IMG/VR virus record: IMGVR_UViG_3300025120_010521 | Strand: one strand, 5' to 3' | Length of the DNA: 64,000 bases | Source: a virus | Lineage: Duplodnaviria; Caudoviricetes | In this document: positions 18,474-64,000 of the stretch, piece after piece | Layout of the letters: every line of letters starts with the position of its first letter | Position numbering within the stretch: the first letter of the stretch is position 1 | Position numbers and translations under genes: made by a program | Notes under the pieces: generated by a model | The model's input: only the letters and a program-made list of their open reading frames with translations | The model's database searches: none | What the model was told of the DNA's origin: nothing

Positions 18474-18529
18474 AATTCTCCATACCTTTACAAATATTTG
18501 TATTATATGTATTTATTATCAAACTGGAA

Positions 18530-53279: not shown

Positions 53280-54195
53280 GAATCATTTCTAGTTCTACCA
53301 TTGTAGCCGCTAGATTGATTTCTGGGTCAACAACCACTGCATGATTAACAATACCTTCACGTATTGCCAACAATGCTCTGTTTTGTTTTTCTTCTGTGTC
53401 ACCAAACCATTCAAGATTTTCATACATTTTACGATAAATTTTTTCATATGAATTAGAATCTGCATTTTCAACAATGTACTTTCTTGCTTTCTCAATGTCA
53501 CCGTTTTGGAACATAGCAACATAAGTAATCTCCATATTGCCTTCTGTAAGATCACCATCTTGTGGTTTTTCTAATTTATTAGTTTGTGAATTCATTTGGC
53601 AAGTGTTAATACACTTTCTTAAATCTGGATAGTTTGCTTTAACATAGATATCAAGTGTATCCATATCAAATTCAACTTTTTCATTTGTAAGTATTTCGCC
53701 AACTCTTACTGCAAACATAGTTTGATCTAAACTTTTAATATGAAATCCTTGACAACGTGAATGTATTGCTGGAATAACTCTACGTTCATAATTACAAGTT
53801 AATAAAAATCTACAAGTTGATGCAAACGACTCCATTAGTCCACGCAATATTGCTTGACCGTTTTGTGTAATATAATCTGCTTCATCTAATAAAACATATT
53901 TAAAATCACCAAACGGCATTGTTTGAGCGAAGTTTGTAATTTTTTCACGCATAACATCTACTGAGTTTTCATTAGATGCATTTATTTCTAATACATCACC
54001 TTTATCAACTTCTAATTCATGTAACAATAATTTTGCAAGTGTAGTCTTACCTGTACCCGGATCACCACTAAACAATAGATGCGGAATAGCTTTAGAGTCT
54101 ATCCAACTTTGAACTTGTCGTTCTTGTTGCTCGTCTCTAAATACGTATTCTTTTACTTTTTTAGGTCTGTATTGTTCTACCCAAAGTTGTTTCAT
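53269..54195 (-). CDS. clamp loader AAA+ subunit (RFC small / gp44-like)
   Basis: WVEQYRP, GDPGTGKT, EINAS, LDEAD, STC, SRC. Confidence 0.92.
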   Translation of the reverse strand: MKQLWVEQYRPKKVKEYVFRDEQQERQVQSWIDSKAIPHLLFSGDPGTGKTTLAKLLLHELEVDKGDVLEINASNENSVDVMREKITNFAQTMPFGDFKYVLLDEADYITQNGQAILRGLMESFASTCRFLLTCNYERRVIPAIHSRCQGFHIKSLDQTMFAVRVGEILTNEKVEFDMDTLDIYVKANYPDLRKCINTCQMNSQTNKLEKPQDGDLTEGNMEITYVAMFQNGDIEKARKYIVENADSNSYEKIYRKMYENLEWFGDTEEKQNRALLAIREGIVNHAVVVDPEINLAATMVELEMIRGK

Positions 54196-54362
54196 TTTTT
54201 ATTCCCGCCAAATAAGTTTTTTACTGTTTCAATTGGTTTTTGCAGATGGTTATATACTGCCCATATTCTTTCAATATGCCCATCAAGTTTATTGTTGAGT
54301 TCATGAATTTGTTTCTTAATATCTGCAACATCTTTTTTTATTTTTTTTATATCATCTGACAT
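54192..54362 (-). CDS. small coiled-coil protein, 56 aa (not in ORF track)
   Basis: MSDDIKKIKKDVADIKKQIHELNNKLDGHIERIWAVY...; ATGA-coupled to the clamp loader. Confidence 0.55.
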   Translation of the reverse strand: MSDDIKKIKKDVADIKKQIHELNNKLDGHIERIWAVYNHLQKPIETVKNLFGGNKK

Positions 54363-54403
54363 TATGCTTTATTATAGTATAAATTGTATATTTTGTCAAA
54401 TGT

Positions 54404-54760
54404 TTAAAATGTAGCAACGCCGCCGTCCTGAAGATCATCTGGTTTGTCATTAGATTTACCAAGAATGCCTTTTGGGTCAGCAACACGAAGATCAAACTCT
54501 TCTCCATCATCTTCAACTTGCACGCCTTTTGTCCAACGACCATGTTCCATTAATACATAATCACCAGGTTGTACCCAATCAATTTCAGGACCAACAGCAT
54601 ATACTTCTGCCCAACGTGGTCTAATTCCATGTCCGCCATCTGAAATTTTATCTGCAGATGGAAGTATAATTCCACCTTTGGATTTCCGCATACCTTGATC
54701 AATACTTTTAACCAAGATTTTATTTCTCAAAGGACGTATTTTACCTTTTGTTACGTGCAT
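54404..54760 (-). CDS. groES: GroES-like co-chaperonin
   Basis: IRPLRNKILV, KSKGGIILP, AVGP. Confidence 0.88.
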   Translation of the reverse strand: MHVTKGKIRPLRNKILVKSIDQGMRKSKGGIILPSADKISDGGHGIRPRWAEVYAVGPEIDWVQPGDYVLMEHGRWTKGVQVEDDGEEFDLRVADPKGILGKSNDKPDDLQDGGVATF

Positions 54761-54763
54761 ATT

Positions 54764-55135
54764 TTACTCTTCTGTTTCTTGTACTAATTCAATATCACCA
54801 TTTGGCAATTCAACTTCTTTCATTTTTGGTTGTTTTGCTTTTGGCTTTGCTGTCTTTTGTGTTTTTGGTTTTTCAGTTACAGGTTGTTCCATTGTTTTTG
54901 TTGCTGAAACATCAACTGCATCTTTAATACTTACAGTTTTTACAGCCGCTTTAGGATTATTTTGATAGTATGCTTGAGCTTGTTCAGTTTTTGTTTTTAC
55001 AACATTACCTTTAGTGTCTAATTGATCACCTCTAGCATTAACTTTCATGTTACCTACTGCTACTGCTTCTTCATTTGTTAATACAAGACTCGACATATCA
55101 ATTGCCTGTCCTCTATTTGATTTTTTAATTGACAT
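54764..55135 (-). CDS. hypothetical protein
   Basis: 123-aa ORF. Confidence 0.6.
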   Translation of the reverse strand: MSIKKSNRGQAIDMSSLVLTNEEAVAVGNMKVNARGDQLDTKGNVVKTKTEQAQAYYQNNPKAAVKTVSIKDAVDVSATKTMEQPVTEKPKTQKTAKPKAKQPKMKEVELPNGDIELVQETEE

Positions 55136-55154
55136 AAGTTATACTCCTATATAA

Positions 55155-55694
55155 TTATTTATCTTTCAAAAAGTCAGTAATATTTAGACCATATTTGATA
55201 GAATTTACTTTGTGTACCCCTAATAGATACAATATGTATGATGATACAGATGATCCTCTACCTACTCCCCATACAATTTTATTTTCTCTCATTGTGTCGA
55301 TTAAATATACTAAAAATCTTAATACATCTAGTATAGCAAATTTTTTGTATAAAATCAATTCTTCTTCAACTCTTATTTTTTCATTTGTGTCTTTAGCTAA
55401 ATTTCTAACATGTTCTTCAATATCCATATTTTTATAATTACTTGGCATGTACCAATCTGATTGTAATGCACGATCATAATCTTCAACTGGAATATCTATA
55501 TCAGTTAATTTTTTGATAGCTGGCCACTCTAATGATAAATCTTCTATAATAGAATTATACTTTTCAACTCTATCATCATTAACTCTAACCTTATCAATAT
55601 CATAACCTTGATATACCAATTCAATTAAATCATTGCAATTTACGATTGGTTCACCATATTGATTTGTGTTTGTAATACGACCTACTTCTGACAT
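55155..55694 (-). CDS. DnaE (Pol III alpha)-like fragment
   Basis: RVEEELILY, GVGRGSSVSSYILYLLGVHKVN.IKYGL resembles DnaE GPGRGSAAGSLV.Y.LGIT.DP. Confidence 0.7.
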   Translation of the reverse strand: MSEVGRITNTNQYGEPIVNCNDLIELVYQGYDIDKVRVNDDRVEKYNSIIEDLSLEWPAIKKLTDIDIPVEDYDRALQSDWYMPSNYKNMDIEEHVRNLAKDTNEKIRVEEELILYKKFAILDVLRFLVYLIDTMRENKIVWGVGRGSSVSSYILYLLGVHKVNSIKYGLNITDFLKDK

Positions 55695-55735
55695 AGTTGT
55701 ATAATATATTAAAATGTATTGATTGTCAAGATCTT

Positions 55736-56107
55736 TTAAGCTTCGCTAACTCGCTGATTCCACTTTTGTGTTAAGTTGCTTACCCAGTTTGTTTTAACTG
55801 CTTGTACACAGGCACCATATGTACATCCTGCTTTTTTGTATTTTTTGTACAATTTTTCTGCTTCTAGTATAATGCTTTGTTTTTCTAAATGTTTAGCATA
55901 TTGATCTTTAGACTTTTGATCTCTACGTCCGGCCAATTCTCTATAAAAGTTTTCATGTGCTGTCATGCTTCTAATTGTTTGCATATCAACAAATATAAAC
56001 TTACGTCTATCTCTTTTTATTGCATTTGTGATTTTTCGGCTTGGTCGTCCAGTCGTTCCACCATTGGAAGTTTTTTTTACTCCAGAACCTGAATTGCCTT
56101 TTGCCAT
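55736..56107 (-). CDS. hypothetical basic protein
   Basis: 123 aa; TAAATA 6 nt before ATG. Confidence 0.6.
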   Translation of the reverse strand: MAKGNSGSGVKKTSNGGTTGRPSRKITNAIKRDRRKFIFVDMQTIRSMTAHENFYRELAGRRDQKSKDQYAKHLEKQSIILEAEKLYKKYKKAGCTYGACVQAVKTNWVSNLTQKWNQRVSEA

Positions 56108-56132
56108 ATAATATATTTATGATATGTGTTAA

Positions 56133-56399
56133 TTAATCACCTATTGTGAAAGGTTTTTCGTCAAATCTTTCTAAATCTTGTTCTTTAGTTTGACGATCTC
56201 GCAATTCTTGTGTAAGAAATGCTAGTTGACGTTGCATCTGTTTGTGTGCTTCTGTATATCCACCACGTCTACCAACTTGATTAATTTTATTTTGAATTGA
56301 GTTAATCAACTTCATTAGTTGATCGTTATCTAAATCTGGTTGTTCAAAAACATTTTTAGGCACCAAAACTCTCCCCACATCCGCATGATGATGTTGCAT
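56133..56399 (-). CDS. hypothetical protein
   Basis: ORF in operon. Confidence 0.5.
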   Translation of the reverse strand: MQHHHADVGRVLVPKNVFEQPDLDNDQLMKLINSIQNKINQVGRRGGYTEAHKQMQRQLAFLTQELRDRQTKEQDLERFDEKPFTIGD

Positions 56400-56676
56400 T
56401 TGGATTTACAACATTTAAATATGATCCACCTAATTCTTCAACATAGTCAATTGTACAACCAAGTATGTACATTTCAGCAACTTTATCTATTAATAATGCT
56501 TTGCCTTCATTTAGTTCAAATTTAATTGTATCTTCAGCTTCTTCATCTGCGAAGTTCCATTCATACTTAAAACCTGCACATCCACCGCCTTTAACAGAAA
56601 AACGCACATATGGTTTATCTTTGCTTAATGCTGTGTTAGTTAAATATGATTTTGCTGTATCTGTTATGTTAATCAT
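56356..56676 (-). CDS. A-type Fe-S carrier (IscA/ErpA/HesB)
   Basis: GGGCAG, SCGCGESF. Confidence 0.92.
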   Translation of the reverse strand: MINITDTAKSYLTNTALSKDKPYVRFSVKGGGCAGFKYEWNFADEEAEDTIKFELNEGKALLIDKVAEMYILGCTIDYVEELGGSYLNVVNPNATSSCGCGESFGA

Positions 56677-57199
56677 TTGTAGTATTTATCTGTTTTTGCG
56701 ATCTAAGTCGTCTACGTTTTTTAGCTTGTTTTGATGTGCTTAACAGCCTATCATAGTTATCAAGTTGTCTTTGGTTTTCATTAAACCATGTTACATATTC
56801 AATTGCTCTTGTTTTTGCCGCTGGATTGTAAATTATATTTGTATAATAAGGATGATAAAGACTATCATTTTCATCTTGCATATATTTGATATAAATTTCA
56901 CCATCAATAACTGTAAAGTGTTTATCTTTTTTTATATAATAATCATTACCGCTTGGATAGTTGCGAACCTTAATGTGGTTTGGTGGTATTCTATCAATCC
57001 AATGCATTCGTGGAAACCAAGAACGTTTACCGTTCCAAGATACACACTCTGGTCTATCTTGTGTTACTTCCCATGCCATTACATAACAAGGATCGTTATC
57101 AATTTTACCTTGAGCTACAACTAGCTCGTCACCAAAGTTATTCTTGCGACCTGATCGCCACACAGTTTTTTCAATAGTGTAATTTTCAGGTCGCGACAT
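56669..57199 (-). CDS. hypothetical protein
   Basis: 176-aa ORF. Confidence 0.6.
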   Translation of the reverse strand: MSRPENYTIEKTVWRSGRKNNFGDELVVAQGKIDNDPCYVMAWEVTQDRPECVSWNGKRSWFPRMHWIDRIPPNHIKVRNYPSGNDYYIKKDKHFTVIDGEIYIKYMQDENDSLYHPYYTNIIYNPAAKTRAIEYVTWFNENQRQLDNYDRLLSTSKQAKKRRRLRSQKQINTTND

Positions 57200-57208
57200 T
57201 TTGAATCC

Positions 57209-57400
57209 TTAGGCACTCGCAGTTTCGGTAGTTTTTGCTTCTTGTATTTCTTTTCTTCTTACTTTTGCAAGTTTTGTGATTTCAGATAAGGCTTTTCTAG
57301 CTCTTGTGCCTGCCGCCTTATTACCTTTTTCAGAAAACTTATCATTGTTGTCTTTGTATTCTTCAAACAATGTTAATAATTGTTGACTTGTAGTACTCAT
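57209..57400 (-). CDS. histone H1-like (Hc1-type) small basic protein
   Basis: KFSEKGNKAAGTRARKALSEITKLAKVRRKEIQ. Confidence 0.75.
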   Translation of the reverse strand: MSTTSQQLLTLFEEYKDNNDKFSEKGNKAAGTRARKALSEITKLAKVRRKEIQEAKTTETASA

Positions 57401-57461
57401 AATTATTTCTCCTTAACTTTGTTATTTTAATATATTTTCTTGTCAAAGTCAATTAAATTCA

Positions 57462-57673
57462 CTAAACCCCAATCAAGGTGGCCAAAAGTGAGCAAAAAAT
57501 TTGTCCCACTCAATTAGGGTTCCGTTATTATATTTCTACCAGATGGTAACGTATATACAACGCGATATAATTCATCCTCATTCAAGAGATCTTACCCCTC
57601 AAGATTCATGGTTTATACCAAACCCAAAAAACCAACGATAGCTTGAACCTCAAGTTTCTATGGTTTCTCACTA
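57462..57673 (-). ncRNA. candidate ~210-nt structured non-coding RNA
   Basis: Gap without a long ORF; at least 6 stems with G.U pairs favouring the minus strand; starts just after TATAAATA. Confidence 0.6.
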
Positions 57674-57677
57674 TATG

Positions 57678-57685
57678 TATTTATA
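57678..57685 (-). promoter_or_regulatory. T4-type late promoter TATAAATA
   Basis: Exact octamer with no protein gene within ~270 nt downstream. Confidence 0.7.
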
Positions 57686-57705
57686 TATTAAAACTACTGA
57701 TAATA

Positions 57706-57912
57706 TTATAATGTAATTGGATCAATTGGCATTATTGTTGAAATTGCATTTTTATATACTAATTGAGTATGTTGCTCACGTTGTAGATACAATGTGCTCT
57801 CATCCATTGCCGTTATGACGCCACTCAATTTAATACCGTTAATTAAAAAAACAGTAACTTGAGATTTTGCATCTAATAATTTTTTTATAAATTTGTCTTC
57901 TTGTTCATGCAT
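57706..57912 (-). CDS. hfq: Hfq (Sm-fold RNA chaperone), divergent
   Basis: VTVFLINGIKLSG (Sm1), QLVYKNAIST (Sm2). Confidence 0.93.
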   Translation of the reverse strand: MHEQEDKFIKKLLDAKSQVTVFLINGIKLSGVITAMDESTLYLQREQHTQLVYKNAISTIMPIDPITL

Positions 57913-57945
57913 GATAATTAATAACCTTCATAAGTATTTATCCAG

Positions 57946-58158
57946 TTATTTATTATCTTTAGAGTTTTTAACCAATTTCATCATCATTAGGTATTGTTGA
58001 TACGATTCTTCGACTGCTGGGTATCTCCTACGCATATATTGTTCATGTTTTGCTCGTTGATCTAGTTTAAACTGTTTACGTTTTAATGTATACAGATCTT
58101 GTTCGAGTTGTTTTATTTTATGCGTTTGTAAGTACTCGTCAGGAGCCATTTGTGTCAA
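57946..58158 (-). CDS. hypothetical protein
   Basis: 70-aa ORF. Confidence 0.55.
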   Translation of the reverse strand: MTQMAPDEYLQTHKIKQLEQDLYTLKRKQFKLDQRAKHEQYMRRRYPAVEESYQQYLMMMKLVKNSKDNK

Positions 58159-59635
58159 TCCACTTATTCAACAATTTAATACCCCATCCTGTAGCACCAC
58201 CACTTGCTGTCATTGACCCTTTATCATTCCAAGTAACTCCTGCTATATCAATGTGTGTCCAAGGAACATCATTTACAAACCTCTGTAAAAATTGTGCCGC
58301 TGTTGTTGAACTTGCTTCGCCGCCTTTACCAACATTATGCATGTCAGCAATTGTTGAATCAACGTATTTGTCGTATCTTTCTCCAATTGGATCGCATGGT
58401 AAACGCCATACTTTTTCATCTACTTTATGTCCTGCATCAATAAGTTGATTGCTTAAATCATCATTGTTTGAAAATATGCCAGCAAGTTGATCACCAAGTG
58501 CAATTGAAATTGCTCCGGTTAATGTTGCTAGATTAATCATTGTTTTTGGCTTATATGTTTTTTGTGTGTACCATAAACAGTCTGCTAGAACTACTCTACC
58601 CTCAGCATCTGTATTATCAATTTCAATAGTTTGCCCACTCATTGAGTTGATTACATCTCCAGGCTTATATGCATTACTAGACACCATATTTTCTACTAGC
58701 CCAATAACACCAACTGCGTTAATAGGTAGGTTACGTTTTGCAATACTGATCATTGTACCAACAACCACTGCTGAACCACCCATATCATATTTCATGTCTT
58801 TCAAGCCTCTAGATGGTTTAATTGAATATCCACCAGTATCAAATGTAACTCCTTTACCAACAAAGGCCCTAGGTGCATCACCTTTTTTGCCTTTCATCCA
58901 TTCCATTACAACCATTTTAGATTCTCTAGCACTACCTTGGCCAACTGCCAATAGTGCTTCAGCACCCATTTCTTTTAGTTCTTTTTCACCATATACTTTT
59001 ACTTTGAGTCCTAGTGCTTCTAATCCTTTAACACGTTCAGCATAAGATTCAGGATACAGTACATTTGAAGGCTCTGAAATTAAATCTTTTGCAAATGCTG
59101 TGCCTTCAATTACTGCGTCTTTGTGTGCATACTCTTCTTTTACTTTTTTTAAGTCAGCACCTTCTTGACATATATCAACTTCAAATAATGTTTCTTCTTT
59201 GTCTTTTTTAGTAAAGTATTTGTCAAACTTATATTCTTTTAACTGCATACCAAAAGCAACATTAGTAGATGATGGTAGTACTTCTTTGTCAACAAATGCA
59301 AGTACACGACCTTGTGTGCCACGTTCTTTTAATTTACTATAAATTGCTCCACCTACTTTTTCTAATTTAGCATCATCTAATTTAACAGGATCTCCTACAC
59401 TAACAAACAATGCATCATGGCAAGGCAAGTTGTTAGATGTAATAAAAAAACTATCTAAAAATTTACCTTTAAAATTATTGTGTGTAATTGTTTCGCTTAA
59501 TAATCCATCAGTGCCTTCATCTAGTATTGATGATGAATGAGATAATTGTACTGCATCGTCTTTTGTATAAAGTAAATGTACTTCGCAAGTACTTTCGCCA
59601 CTTGATTCTATATCGTTAATAAAATCTATTTTCAT
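58139..59635 (-). CDS. pepA: leucyl aminopeptidase (M17)
   Basis: GKGVTFDTGG, MKYDMGG, NTDAEGR, ATLTGA. Confidence 0.95.
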   Translation of the reverse strand: MKIDFINDIESSGESTCEVHLLYTKDDAVQLSHSSSILDEGTDGLLSETITHNNFKGKFLDSFFITSNNLPCHDALFVSVGDPVKLDDAKLEKVGGAIYSKLKERGTQGRVLAFVDKEVLPSSTNVAFGMQLKEYKFDKYFTKKDKEETLFEVDICQEGADLKKVKEEYAHKDAVIEGTAFAKDLISEPSNVLYPESYAERVKGLEALGLKVKVYGEKELKEMGAEALLAVGQGSARESKMVVMEWMKGKKGDAPRAFVGKGVTFDTGGYSIKPSRGLKDMKYDMGGSAVVVGTMISIAKRNLPINAVGVIGLVENMVSSNAYKPGDVINSMSGQTIEIDNTDAEGRVVLADCLWYTQKTYKPKTMINLATLTGAISIALGDQLAGIFSNNDDLSNQLIDAGHKVDEKVWRLPCDPIGERYDKYVDSTIADMHNVGKGGEASSTTAAQFLQRFVNDVPWTHIDIAGVTWNDKGSMTASGGATGWGIKLLNKWIDTNGS

Positions 59636-59859
59636 TTGACCTCCATGTCTTTAGTAAGAACTAAAGGTTTTTCTGAAAACATTTCTGAATATACTTTTAG
59701 ATCTTCTTGTTCTTTTTGTTCTCGCTGATCAAATATTTCTATTTGAATTGCTTGTTTAATATCATATGCAAGTTGTGGCCATTTGACTACAAAGTTATGA
59801 ACAAACTCATCTCGTTGTTTTTGATTCATTCTTGCAATTTGTTCTACTACATCAGTCAT
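59632..59859 (-). CDS. hypothetical protein
   Basis: 75-aa ORF. Confidence 0.55.
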   Translation of the reverse strand: MTDVVEQIARMNQKQRDEFVHNFVVKWPQLAYDIKQAIQIEIFDQREQKEQEDLKVYSEMFSEKPLVLTKDMEVK

Positions 59860-60191
59860 GCAACATTTTCTTCCTTAGGCATTTCATACATTGGAAATTC
59901 TGCCTTACCACGTTTAGGTTCGTGCATACCTACTGCCCAACCATTTTCTAATTCAACCCAGTACTTTACGGTCTTTTCTGGACCAGGCCATCCATAATTA
60001 CCAGCATTACGATCTTTAATTTTTACGTCGCTAAACTGTCTGGCAGGAATATCTTTTTTCTTATATTTTGCCATCTTCCACCACCATTGAAAATCTAAAC
60101 CAAGTGTAGTTTCATTTTCAAGTTCTTTTGATATTCCATATTGTTCTGATGCATACAGTCCTAATGGATCGTTTTTGTCTATTTTAGGCAT
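59856..60191 (-). CDS. hypothetical protein
   Basis: 111-aa ORF. Confidence 0.55.
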   Translation of the reverse strand: MPKIDKNDPLGLYASEQYGISKELENETTLGLDFQWWWKMAKYKKKDIPARQFSDVKIKDRNAGNYGWPGPEKTVKYWVELENGWAVGMHEPKRGKAEFPMYEMPKEENVA

Positions 60192-60372
60192 TATATTCTC
60201 CTTTGTAGTTTATTTTTTGTTTAGTTTGTTTATTCCATATATAATGATATGGAAATGCTTTTGGCCTTTTGTCTTTTAAACTAGCCATGGCGTGTTGGGC
60301 ATCTACTTCTGTTTCAAATTTCCAACACAATACGTCATCATGTATTCTTGGTGTGTACCAAATTTCATACAT
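60184..60372 (-). CDS. hypothetical protein
   Basis: 62-aa ORF. Confidence 0.5.
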   Translation of the reverse strand: MYEIWYTPRIHDDVLCWKFETEVDAQHAMASLKDKRPKAFPYHYIWNKQTKQKINYKGEYNA

Positions 60373-60713
60373 TATTTTTTCTCTTCTTCTGTTAAGCTAC
60401 TTAAAAAGTCTGGCTTTGTTTCCAAGCAATAAACTTTTAATGTTTCTTCTTTAAGTATTCTTGTGGCTTTACAATCCTTGCCTGTGATTGACGAAACAAT
60501 GTGATCAGTTGTTGTTTTCTTTCCTTCAACTGCCAATGCTGTATCAACACCTGCTTTTACTATTGTAACCGTTTTGTATGTTTGGTAAGAACTTGATGCT
60601 GTTGCTGTTGCTCCGCCACCAACTAAAAAGCTAGGGGCCGCACATCCTTGTAATAATACAAGTATAGATATCCACAACAACATTAAAAATAGTACTGGTC
60701 TTGGACTCATCAT
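60372..60713 (-). CDS. putative lipoprotein
   Basis: Hydrophobic N-terminus and LLQGC lipobox. Confidence 0.65.
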   Translation of the reverse strand: MMSPRPVLFLMLLWISILVLLQGCAAPSFLVGGGATATASSSYQTYKTVTIVKAGVDTALAVEGKKTTTDHIVSSITGKDCKATRILKEETLKVYCLETKPDFLSSLTEEEKK

Positions 60714-61135
60714 ACTTTTCTACCTGCTGTTTTTAAATCTTCTTTTGCTACTACCATATATGGACCTTTATTATAAGCTGGAACAATAGAGTATTGTTTA
60801 CTAACTTCAAGTCTTTCTTTGGTTTCTTTCCAACTACGTGTACCACCTCTAGTAATTCTATTGCTCAACTTAGGTTGTGGTAATGTTTGCCTAGTCATTG
60901 GTTCTGTAGTAGTTGGGTTACCTAAACTCATTTTCTGTTGTGGTTGTTTTATAGGTTTCCATTTACCTTGAACATAATCAACATACTCTTCAAAAGTCAT
61001 TTTTGACAGTTTCATTTTTGCTAAGAACTTATTATGTTTGCGAAAGCCGTCCATATACGTATGTAACGGTTTTGGCTTTTTTTTGCGCCTTGTCGTATTT
61101 AGGGTAGTAAGCCCTTGTTCTAAGTGCATTGTCAT
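60710..61135 (-). CDS. hypothetical basic phage protein
   Basis: 141 aa, own sigma70 promoter. Confidence 0.6.
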   Translation of the reverse strand: MTMHLEQGLTTLNTTRRKKKPKPLHTYMDGFRKHNKFLAKMKLSKMTFEEYVDYVQGKWKPIKQPQQKMSLGNPTTTEPMTRQTLPQPKLSNRITRGGTRSWKETKERLEVSKQYSIVPAYNKGPYMVVAKEDLKTAGRKV

Positions 61136-61141
61136 AGTATT

Positions 61142-61222
61142 AATATAGCATCAATTAGCAGATTGTCAAGTAAAAGATTAGTCTTTTTTGAAACAATAAG
61201 TCATTGAAATTATTGACTTTTT
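61142..61222 (-). promoter_or_regulatory. Sigma70 promoter with an inverted IHF-like site upstream
   Basis: TTGACA-N16-TATATT; 61197-61222 reads AAAAAgtcAATAAttTCAAtgacTTA on the minus strand. Confidence 0.6.
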
Positions 61223-62238
61223 ATTTTTTTATTTTTTTCTTCTATTTGTTGCTCTGCTACAATGAATGGAGGTTTGCGTAATTTAGAGCTATGATTTAAC
61301 AAAGATAACGTTCTAGTAAAGATTTTATCAAGTTCTTTTTCTAATGATTTTTTATTATCTTCTAAATGTTTTGCAATCATAATTACACCACCTACACCAG
61401 CAACATACTCAGGAATATAAAGTACTCGCTTACTATGTAAATTATAACCTGCTTTATTACTTGCTAGTTGTCCTTCAGATACTCCTACAATGTTTAAAGC
61501 GGACGTTTCGATAGTAACACTTTTATCTAAGTAATCTACTCCATTGCAAAGTACATAAACATCAGACGGAACTTTGTGTGCTTCAGATGTACTACATGTT
61601 CCAAAATATGCATTAGCATATAATTGATTAATGTTTTCTTTATTATCATCACATACTGTAAGATTAGCTTTGTTTTTATCAATTAGTTTGGAAACTTCTT
61701 TTCCAACACTATCTAATCCTTTAACAACAACATGCTTATGTTGTAGAGACTTACTACTACTGTGAAACTGCTGAAGTGCCCTAATAGAATAAAATACTCC
61801 TTTAGCCTGAGCTTTAGAGTATGCTTCATGCTCAACATCAACTAATTGAGGTAAACTTTCTTTTAAGTAATAGTAAAATTCATACTCTAGTTCTTGACCA
61901 ATATATAAATTAATTTCATCTTTATACTGATTTGAAACAAAGTCTACAAACTTATTAATAGCCGATACTTTATTTTTATATGATTCTGTATTAATTGTAA
62001 TTACTCCAGGAGAGTAATTAATGCCAGCATACTTAAACTTTTTATCTATAGATTTAGCATACTTTATTGTATTATCAAATTGTTGATTTTTTGATGTGAA
62101 TGACTCGAATTTAATTTCTACTAAAGGTTTTTTATCGTTATCATTAGAAATTGCAATTACTGACTCAAATCCGCATTCATCATCGCTAACGTGTGATACT
62201 GAGAATTTTTCGTATCCAATTGGATCGATTTTAATCAT
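61210..62238 (-). CDS. Glu/Leu/Phe/Val dehydrogenase homolog with degenerate active site
   Basis: Colinear similarity (SDDECGFESVIAI, AKGVFYSIRA, HVVVKGLDSVG, DVYVLC, YIPEYVAGVGGVI), but GGGK, AEDVG and ANN are missing. Confidence 0.7.
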   Translation of the reverse strand: MIKIDPIGYEKFSVSHVSDDECGFESVIAISNDNDKKPLVEIKFESFTSKNQQFDNTIKYAKSIDKKFKYAGINYSPGVITINTESYKNKVSAINKFVDFVSNQYKDEINLYIGQELEYEFYYYLKESLPQLVDVEHEAYSKAQAKGVFYSIRALQQFHSSSKSLQHKHVVVKGLDSVGKEVSKLIDKNKANLTVCDDNKENINQLYANAYFGTCSTSEAHKVPSDVYVLCNGVDYLDKSVTIETSALNIVGVSEGQLASNKAGYNLHSKRVLYIPEYVAGVGGVIMIAKHLEDNKKSLEKELDKIFTRTLSLLNHSSKLRKPPFIVAEQQIEEKNKKIKSQ

Positions 62239-62253
62239 TTTATTTGTCTCCGC

Positions 62254-62970
62254 TTATTTCTTCTCGGGTTGACTAACTGTCTGCTGTGCTTTTGTTAATT
62301 CTTCAAATTCTTTGTCTGTTACTTTTTTAATAACAAATACTAAATTTTTTTCTTTGAATGTTTTATCATCTTCACCTTTTGGATTACCATTAATAAGTTC
62401 AATTGAAAAATCTGTTGCTACTTGAATTTGAAATTTATGTCTTAAAAACAATGACGCCCATTGTTTTGCTCCCATTACCGAATAATGATTAGCCATATAT
62501 TCAATAGGTCTAAAATTATCTGGTGCAGGCATTTCAATGTATGCTTTTCCACCAGTCTTTAATACTCTACGAAATTCACCAAGTGTAAAATATGGGAAAG
62601 GTGAATGTTCTAAGCAATGTCTAACAAAAAGGAAATCAAAAGATTCATCTGCAAAAGTCATAAAAGACTGATCCATATTTTCACATTCAAAGCCTCTGTC
62701 TTTAGTTGCTTTTACATCTTCATTACTCATTGTGATGCCTTTAATATTTGTAAACCCTGCTTCTTTAAATTTTTCCATAGCATAACCTTGACCACAACCA
62801 ATATCAAGTATCGCTTGGTCTTTGTTATCGCCTAGTTGATTTTTTTCTAAGTCAGGAACTATCTGATCAATCATTTTTGTGTGCATAGCACTATCTGGTT
62901 CTGAATATACTTCACTAGATACCTTGTTTAAAAAATTTGTTATTTTTTGTAATTTATCTGTTATTTCCAT
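62254..62970 (-). CDS. class I SAM-dependent methyltransferase
   Basis: ILDIGCGQG, FDFLFVRHCLEHS, RVLKTGG. Confidence 0.88.
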   Translation of the reverse strand: MEITDKLQKITNFLNKVSSEVYSEPDSAMHTKMIDQIVPDLEKNQLGDNKDQAILDIGCGQGYAMEKFKEAGFTNIKGITMSNEDVKATKDRGFECENMDQSFMTFADESFDFLFVRHCLEHSPFPYFTLGEFRRVLKTGGKAYIEMPAPDNFRPIEYMANHYSVMGAKQWASLFLRHKFQIQVATDFSIELINGNPKGEDDKTFKEKNLVFVIKKVTDKEFEELTKAQQTVSQPEKK

Positions 62971-62992
62971 TTTTATTCTTTCTTGTGTTATT

Positions 62993-63067
62993 TGGAGCGG
63001 GTAAAGGGGTTCGAACCCTTGACCTATTCGTTGGCAACGAATCGCTCTACCACTGAGCTACACCCGC
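62993..63067 (-). tRNA. tRNA-Gly (GCC), CCA encoded
   Basis: GCGGGTG TA GCTC AGTGGTA GAGC G ATTCG TTGCCAA CGAAT AGGTC AAGGG TTCGAAC CCCTT TACCCGC T CCA; own TTGACA-N17-TATTAT promoter. Confidence 0.97.
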
Positions 63068-63121
63068 CTAACATCATAATAATATAATACTTGTTTTCAT
63101 TAATTATGTCAACACCTATTA

Positions 63122-63517
63122 TTAATTTGCTAAAGGATTTGTTGCTTTTAATCTTACTTCTTCAATTTTAGAATCTTGTAATTCATTTACTTTTGATTGA
63201 ATTTCAATATCTTTTTGTGCTTCGGCCATTTCTGTCCATAGCTCTTCTACATCTGCCCAAAGTTCATTAATACCTTCGTCTGATTCAGAACTCATTTTAT
63301 CTTCAATTATTTTGATTCTATCAATTACTTCGACTCTGATGTTAGCAATTTTATCATTTACAGATGTAAGATCTACTGTTTGATTTACAATAAAATCTTT
63401 ATTTTCAATTGCTGATAGTCTTGTATTAAATTCACCCCATGCGTAGAATCCACCACCAATTGCACCTATTACACCAATAAGCGATGCATAAGTTGTTAGT
63501 TTATCAATTATTTTCAT
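63122..63517 (-). CDS. hypothetical membrane-anchored coiled-coil protein
   Basis: N-terminal TM (LIGVIGAIGGGFYAW), heptad region. Confidence 0.6.
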   Translation of the reverse strand: MKIIDKLTTYASLIGVIGAIGGGFYAWGEFNTRLSAIENKDFIVNQTVDLTSVNDKIANIRVEVIDRIKIIEDKMSSESDEGINELWADVEELWTEMAEAQKDIEIQSKVNELQDSKIEEVRLKATNPLAN

Positions 63518-64000
63518 TTCTAAGTACCTCTAATTCGGCTTGTAGCCTTGCTATATCGTTGTTTACTTTATTTACCTTTAGTTCGTGCTGTGCCACAGGA
63601 TCTGACTGTATATAAGAAGTTAATGTAACATCTTGGTATATTGACCTATTATATGCCATTAATATAGTATCTTCAGCATACCAATCTGGATTGTCTTGTA
63701 GTTTTCTTGTGTCATAAAACTGTTGGTTTGCGTATTCAGTTATGTCAGGTTGATCTTCAATCATACCTTGTAATGTTACAATTGATATAACTTTTAATTT
63801 CTGATCAAGTGTTTTTAATTTTGATTCTAATTTTTTAAGTACTTTTTCCACTTTGGCTTGAATTTCGCTAACTTCTGATTCTACACTATCGGTATCAACA
63901 CTTGCATCTGCACCATCTTGTTCATCAGTGGATGCTTCTTCGTTACCGTCTTCCACTGACTCTTCTTCATTACCAGTGGACTCTTCTTGTTCAGTTGTTT
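63504..64000 (-). CDS. acidic protein, 5'-truncated by the window edge
   Basis: Frame stays open to 64000 (TTEQEESTGNEEESVEDG...); the track start is an internal GTG. Confidence 0.65.
   Translation of the reverse strand, partial: TTEQEESTGNEEESVEDGNEEASTDEQDGADASVDTDSVESEVSEIQAKVEKVLKKLESKLKTLDQKLKVISIVTLQGMIEDQPDITEYANQQFYDTRKLQDNPDWYAEDTILMAYNRSIYQDVTLTSYIQSDPVAQHELKVNKVNNDIARLQAELEVLRNENN

Follow-up and report, generated by a model that had tools for sequence, protein, structure and literature searches.

An open reading frame in the DNA of an uncultured marine jumbo phage encodes a true Hfq that is under strong purifying selection. The protein belongs to a well-populated clade of jumbo-phage Hfqs that have lost both RNA-handling surfaces, i.e. 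the proximal pocket and the rim, and retain a frozen distal face. This clade is new, and so are three further observations: a late-type promoter box is conserved in front of the phage hfq, this gene stands in fixed linkage with a structured RNA and the gene hc1, and similar pocket losses have occurred independently in AT-rich cellular lineages. The literature searched contained no study of what an Hfq encoded by a phage does. The best reading of the data, to which we assign a probability of roughly 40%, is a functional, phage-adapted Hfq ring that acts late in infection as a distal-face mRNA binder and is independent of small RNAs.

The phage and its hfq locus

The window, i.e. the whole stretch of 64,000 nucleotides that was analysed, has a GC content of mostly 32–34% and of at most 40% in one block. 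Nearly all genes lie on one strand. The AT skew is about -0.15 on the plus strand, and the mRNA strand is A-rich. The window encodes a T4-type DNA polymerase, tail-fibre-like proteins, an ATP-dependent protease, an M17 aminopeptidase, an IscA-like protein, a mini-DnaE and the histone-like Hc1. The DNA polymerase is most similar to those of Sinorhizobium phage Phosso (51% identity) and Agrobacterium phage Atu_ph07 (47%), followed by Rak2-like jumbo phages. Marine contigs with lengths of up to 286 and 324 kb carry the same or a near-identical Hfq. Furthermore, a complete IMG/VR genome of 328,149 bp with terminal repeats (G001) carries an Hfq with 70% identity as its sole Hfq. On the basis of the polymerase kinship, the gene content and the contigs and complete genome carrying Hfqs of this clade, the source is an uncultured marine T4-related jumbo phage of about 290–330 kb.

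The nearest cultured phages according to the polymerase infect Rhizobiales (Alphaproteobacteria) and the putative host may be alphaproteobacterial as well. The sole nucleotide match to a cultured phage is a stretch of 73 bp at 60710-60783 with 82% identity to Pelagibacter phage Mosig, which hints only faintly at a host of the SAR11 type or at a common gene pool. A literature search on SAR11 and Hfq found no statement on the presence of Hfq in Pelagibacter.

The clade comprises approx. 42 clusters of 68-residue Hfqs, which are 66–100% identical to the one in the window and all lie on phage-like marine contigs. In every relative fetched, the locus has the same order, namely pepA, two small ORFs, hfq, a spacer of 250–320 nt, hc1, an ORF of 180 residues, iscA and mini-dnaE (Table 1). 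The arrangement of hfq, structured spacer and hc1 was present in all seven related loci examined. The mini-DnaE is a conserved protein and not a fragment, since its length and place are kept in most of the related loci (L088, L089, L091, L093 and L095). On the 286-kb 'monsoon' contig, pepA is broken into three ORFs (L092:1288-2489) and the calls for iscA and mini-dnaE are shortened. As hfq and hc1 are intact there, these disruptions are probably long-read assembly errors and not decay.

Small lysine- and arginine-rich proteins are encoded at 54764-55135 and 55736-56107 on the minus strand and share the hfq block with Hc1. These proteins and Hc1 are possible DNA-condensing or packaged proteins. 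The late-type boxes of this block are located between genes in two cases and within the preceding ORF in two others.

Table 1. Elements of the hfq locus and their positions in the window
Feature	Position	Strand	Basis and occurrence in relatives
mini-DnaE, ORF of 179 residues	55155-55694	-	N-terminal part of the DNA polymerase III alpha NTPase domain only, Pfam E 1.9e-10
hc1, histone H1-like protein of 63 residues, always next after hfq	57209..57400	-	Pfam PF07432, E 1e-18; same place in L086-L096
hfq-hc1 spacer, ~280 nt	57401-57705	-	Relatives L086:10208-10456, L088:6208-6483, L092:3208-3505, L093:3208-3514, L095:3208-3527
Sigma-70-like promoter TTGACT-17-TAAAAT, just 5' of hc1	57424..57452	-	10/12 consensus; both hexamers conserved
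Conserved stem-loop of ~65 nt (AACGGAACCC...GGGGUUUAGU), 3' part of the spacer	57461..57525	-	RNAalifold
TATAAATA, exact late-promoter consensus, begins 21 nt past the hfq stop and faces spacer and hc1	57678..57685	-	Kept in 5/6 aligned loci
hfq, phage Hfq of 68 residues, Sm core alone without C-terminal tail	57706..57912	-	Pfam PF17209, PDB matches, AF2, dN/dS
GATAAATA box, putative T4-type late promoter, 22 nt 5' of the hfq ATG	57935..57942	-	Invariant in 7/7 related loci, flanks diverged
pepA-like M17 leucyl aminopeptidase, conserved upstream anchor	58139..59635	-	Pfam PF00883, E 1e-117; synteny

Identity and surfaces of the phage Hfq

The ORF matched the Pfam Hfq family with an E-value of 1.9e-20 and 72.7 bits (cut-off 27), covering profile positions 3-63 of 64. 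It also matched 35 solved Hfq sequences, with the Hfq of Caulobacter crescentus (6gwk) as top match (E 6.8e-15, 45% identity). The source pipelines had annotated the protein as "host factor-I". PHROGs gave marginal matches only (E 0.015), and only seven of 50,697 phage records matched at E <= 1e-3 with at most 41% identity, several of which are actually bacterial assemblies. The Sm2 motif Y-K-H-A-I-S-T reads YKNAIST and is thus identical in six of seven positions; the change of H57 to N is shared by 40 of 42 clade members. Pairwise dN/dS values among the hfq genes of the clade ranged from 0.04 to 0.18 at saturated dS.

An AF2 model computed from the family alignment reached a pLDDT of 94.9 and shows a helix (residues 3-15) and five strands, i.e. 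the Sm fold. In Foldseek it superimposed on 6gwk with a TM score of 0.91 and an rmsd of 0.9 Å, and the top 50 matches were all Hfq. When four copies were co-folded, the score was 0.33 compared to 0.00 for the best control. Three runs agreed in at least 92% of the contacts with a partner pLDDT of at least 76, and the mark was attained by 21 of 30 solved homo-pairs and by none of 23 single chains. The contacts run along β4-β5 as in Hfq, and E5 packs on residues 37-40 of the neighbouring subunit. The earlier note had expected the subunit to be still ring-forming, and the Sm fold, the β4-β5 interface and the co-fold agree with it. However, many Hfq rings have already been solved, and the pass may therefore mirror likeness to these rings and is no proof.

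In many bacteria, regulation by small RNAs centres on Hfq. Its proximal surface binds the U-tails of small RNAs, the rim arginines drive annealing and the distal face recognises ARN motifs within the leaders of mRNAs (PMC5580658). Residues are given in E. coli numbering; HMMER paired residues 5-67 of the phage protein with 8-69 of full-length E. coli Hfq (3qhs), so that its E5 corresponds to Q8. Substitutions were read from the printed alignment to 6gwk and from column tables, and conservation was assessed over 42 clade members. All changes listed in the earlier note (Q8E, R16L, R17D, F39M, Q41E, F42S and H57N) were found, and so were all residues it had described as retained (Y25F, G29, I30, K31, Q52, Y55 and K56). 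R19K and Q33S have to be added.

The proximal pocket for uridine and the RNA 3' end is formed by Q8, F42, K56 and H57, of which K56 alone is retained next to E8, S42 and N57. M39 and E41 are located beside it. Most clade members (39 of 42) share E8. Position 39 is the most variable one of the protein (S/M/N/V/T/Y; entropy 2.6 bits in the 42 members), and positions 41 (E/D/N; 1.5 bits) and 42 (S/N/T/E; 1.7 bits) are also well above the near-invariant sites. On the rim, where canonical alphaproteobacterial Hfqs have R-K-x-K, the basic residues R16, R17 and R19 are replaced by hydrophobic I/L/V, acidic D/E and K/N, respectively, and no arginine is left. Of the distal purine-binding residues, five of six are kept near-invariant (F25, G29, I/V30, K31 and Q52), and Q33, which belongs to the distal A-site, is S in the phage Hfq and in 39 of 42 members. 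The loop R-[DE]-[QK]-H-T-Q, the Sm2 strand YKNAISTIMP and the C-terminal IDPI are near-invariant, too. With a pI of 6.0 the phage Hfq is net acidic; net charges range from 0 to -3 in the clade, compared to +4 to +6 for canonical alphaproteobacterial cores.

Since one surface is tightly constrained and two others were given up, this pattern is not one of general decay. An invariant distal face and C-terminus together with a drifting pocket wall suggest that the protein is selected for binding a ligand in its own right and not only for its ring interface. Judged from these residues, a phage Hfq that retains only the surface for A-rich RNA probably acts differently from host Hfq.

The Caulobacter crescentus protein (6gwk; PMC6561178) resembles the phage Hfq in the Sm fold, the length of the β3-β4 loop, F25 and a near-identical Sm2. 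In contrast to it, the phage protein has no acidic C-terminal tail and carries Q8E, F39M, F42S and H57N; position 41 is N in Caulobacter and E in the phage. The rim changes from R-K-x-K to L-D-x-K, the protein is net acidic instead of strongly basic, and its gene lies in a phage context and not in the hfq-hflX arrangement.

Among 185,579 species genomes searched, Alphaproteobacteria contained the closest cellular Hfqs (49–63% identity). After clustering of the library at 50% identity, the whole phage clade forms one representative and everything else is at most 62% identical. In a maximum-likelihood tree, the phage Hfqs are monophyletic (UFBoot 98) on a long branch, and their sister group is unreliable. 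P0049, P0096 and P0180 appeared as tree neighbours and were discarded as a meeting of long branches.

Many uncultured Alphaproteobacteria have a non-aromatic residue at position 42 and D, N or E at position 17. P0046, an Hfq of 71 residues encoded directly before hflX in the classic cellular layout, has H39, E41, N42 and N57, and the Hfq P0051 has S33, G41, N42 and N57. Such chromosomal Hfqs of AT-rich Alphaproteobacteria lack F42 and H57 and, in many cases, F39. The flanking DNA of the three variants that were checked (L001, L004 and L016) has 29–31% GC. In a genome of 1.5 Mb (locus L016), the variant-pocket Hfq is the only Hfq found, and such sole variants are presumably functional. These sequences suggest that reduced, AT-rich alphaproteobacterial lineages have repeatedly lost the classical uridine pocket. 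Among the best-scoring relatives, P0061-P0070 and P0074 (140–190 residues) are tandem Hfqs with two Sm domains per chain; some of them have E8 and a hydrophobic residue 16 in both halves, as in the phage protein.

The variant-pocket Hfqs of these cells (L001-L003, L004/L005 and L016) resemble the phage Hfq in F39H, Q41E/G, F42N/E, H57N, a near-neutral charge and a short or missing tail. In contrast to it, they retain Q8 as well as two basic residues on the rim, and their clades are separate and well supported; L001-L003 also lie beside hflX. The phage clade is not nested in these clades, and the similarities in the pocket are thus convergent and arose independently. The combination of E8, an I/L16-D/E17 rim and the pocket changes was absent from every cellular Hfq sampled.

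It is unlikely that the phage copy is an ordinary Hfq which boosts or replaces a normal chaperone and whose substitutions are merely the typical drift of AT-rich alphaproteobacterial lineages. This would fit the hflX-linked cellular Hfqs from DNA of 29–31% GC with F39H/Q, Q41E, F42N/E and H57N, the variant-pocket genome without a second Hfq and one Hfq from Holosporales with E8, V16, N17 and V42. Against it stand the long branch of the well-supported phage clade outside those cellular clades, and the absence of the whole set from all sampled cellular Hfqs, the variants of which retain Q8 and part of the basic rim. Moreover, most domains of the 150 nearest representatives retain the classical residues (194 domains; F42 in 111, H57 in 158 and Q8 in 109 of 122 aligned).

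The comparison with alphaproteobacterial Hfqs which the earlier note had called for thus gave a mixed answer: the full set is confined to the phages among the sequences sampled, but hflX-linked Hfqs from AT-rich DNA carry F39H/Q41E/F42N/H57N or similar changes. Its term of a "dead" pocket holds in so far as three of four uridine-pocket residues and all rim arginines are lost. It is too strong, however, because similar pockets occur in cellular and even in sole Hfqs, and the substitutions therefore do not prove a dead protein. As no sampled cellular Hfq has the full set, a real re-specialisation of the phage Hfq remains likely.

Promoter boxes and the hfq-hc1 spacer

The coding strand of the whole window contains 20 copies of ATAAATA, which forms the core of the late promoter of T4, compared to a single copy on the other strand. 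Fourteen of the 20 copies are intergenic, although intergenic DNA makes up 9.5% of the window, and they are mostly located 5-60 nt before start codons. Examples on the minus strand are found at 18516, 20841, 23567 and 2297; several lie just 5-6 nt ahead of an ATG, and one precedes the gene of a tail-fibre-like protein of 1654 residues. The full late-promoter sequence is rarer than expected by chance, with five of six copies on the coding strand. This distribution looks like a T4-type late-promoter system in which some messages are leaderless. By analogy with T4, the box in front of hfq would act as the late promoter of this gene.

Within the spacer, the stem-loop predicted from six loci has 21 pairs, seven of which show compensatory changes. 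It is followed on its 3' side by the conserved sigma-70-like promoter and then by the ribosome site of hc1. A scan of 54000-64000 with Rfam at E <= 1 detected tRNA-Gly only and no family for the spacer RNA. Error-free marine metatranscriptome contigs from two studies, whose libraries may contain DNA, extend over hc1 and the spacer and break off at 57659 and 57672. These stops fall close to the transcript start expected from the box downstream of hfq, which is a weak hint as contigs cannot show ends. Instead of being an RNA of its own, the spacer may serve hc1 as a long late leader, since one error-free contig (57357-57659) spans the interior of hc1, its start codon and the spacer. None of the metatranscriptome contigs compared covers the coding region of hfq exactly, which says nothing on its expression.

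The neighbourhood of hc1 also bears on a role directed at DNA, in which the phage Hfq, together with Hc1 and other small basic late proteins, would condense or organise phage DNA. The gene invariably adjoins hc1, the block contains late-type promoter boxes and the Hfq core binds DNA in solved structures (5uk7 is among the fold matches). However, DNA compaction by E. coli Hfq relies largely on the C-terminal tail, and this main driver is missing here. The phage Hfq is acidic, and gene adjacency is weak evidence by itself. Such a role is therefore very improbable.

Candidate functions of the phage Hfq

According to the preferred reading, the phage Hfq would be synthesised late in infection and would form hexamers of its own. 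Its distal face would bind A-rich stretches (ARN/AAN-type) in mRNA leaders without small RNAs, and the binding would repress or stabilise particular late messages, comparable to the action of E. coli Hfq on mutS and on its own mRNA. The most obvious candidate target would be the message of the neighbouring hc1, whose leader is structured and conserved. A matchmaker of small RNAs and mRNAs is not what the protein would be. E. coli Hfq can repress translation via its distal face with no small RNA involved, and the exchanges Q8A (proximal) and R16A (rim) only modestly weaken this repression (PMC5580658).

This mode, known from the mutS leader (PMC5580658) and from hfq autoregulation (PMC6348989), is the one proposed here. 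It uses A-rich leader motifs, and proximal pocket and rim are dispensable for it. In E. coli it is one activity of a protein with three surfaces, whereas in the phage it would be the sole remaining one, with Q33 changed to S. As the mRNA strand of the phage is A-rich, ARN-type sites are plentiful. The net acidic charge of 0 to -3, deduced from the sequences, is unusual for an RNA binder and would count against RNA binding. Due to Q33S at the distal A-site, even the distal specificity may differ, and the sole variant-pocket Hfqs of cells allow such proteins to be ordinary chaperones still. The earlier note had also considered a re-specialisation for the neighbouring phage RNA. This idea gained slightly from the linkage of hfq, structured spacer and hc1 in 7/7 loci, but the hc1 leader yielded no conserved ARN repeat.

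The function which the earlier note had put first, a dominant-negative poison of host hexamers, found no direct support. In this scenario, the phage subunit would disable host rings by mixing, or compete for A-rich mRNAs, and thereby shut down regulation by small RNAs. The Sm2 strand at the interface is near-identical to that of alphaproteobacterial Hfqs (YKNAISTIMP versus YKHAISTIMP), the phage protein is devoid of the small-RNA pocket and rim, and the nearest cultured relatives of the phage infect Alphaproteobacteria, which possess Hfq. However, a host-takeover factor is expected to be made early, and the box in front of hfq is of the late type in 7/7 loci. A poison would require the interface alone, but conservation is highest at the distal face and the C-terminus. 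Given the great stability of Hfq hexamers, mixing would require co-synthesis with host Hfq. The scenario further presupposes Hfq in a host that is itself only putative, and comparable pocket changes are found in sole, presumably functional cellular Hfqs. Taken together, an anti-Hfq function is judged unlikely.

A structural role was considered as well, in which the self-encoded ring is a part for virion assembly and is kept for a distal surface that faces the neck, with decayed RNA sites. In T4, the Hfq hexamer of the host serves as a second, transient gate beneath the neck ring of gp14, and the contacts to gp14 are made by K31, Q33, T49, S65 and R19, i.e. by the distal face and the edge (PMC12929587). 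The polymerase groups the phage with T4-related jumbo phages, the gene has a late-type promoter, and it lies in a block with late-type boxes beside the histone-like hc1. The invariant distal face and C-terminal segment, the lost pocket and rim and the acidic character are likewise in line with this role; a neck plug would account for a late, acidic ring that is conserved only distally.

In contrast to this phage, T4 borrows the Hfq of its host and encodes none. Only one of the five T4 contact residues is identical (K31); the others are K/N19, S33, Q/K49 and I65, which a co-evolved partner could tolerate. A search of the complete 328-kb relative for gp14 families (PF11649, phrog_679, phrog_27011 and T4 gp14 itself) gave no match, as did a search for phrog_679 in phage Phosso; neck proteins diverge fast. 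Matches of phrog_460 in the complete relative were rejected as a neck protein because they are only repeat domains inside ORFs of 1323 and 3987 residues. Furthermore, Phosso, the closest cultured relative, has no Hfq, and the yield of T4 falls only about 2-fold without Hfq (PMC12929587). A neck plug is thus judged quite unlikely.

The phage Hfq is small and easily expressed, and every one of these readings is therefore cheap to test. The clade is in effect a natural separation-of-function mutant that abundant ocean phages have kept under strong selection. If the protein is an mRNA binder with one remaining face, large phages would run a late post-transcriptional control of their own. If it is a neck plug, the finding of 2026 on T4 (PMC12929587) would extend to a virus-encoded part, and if it acts against host Hfq, it would represent a new counter-host strategy.
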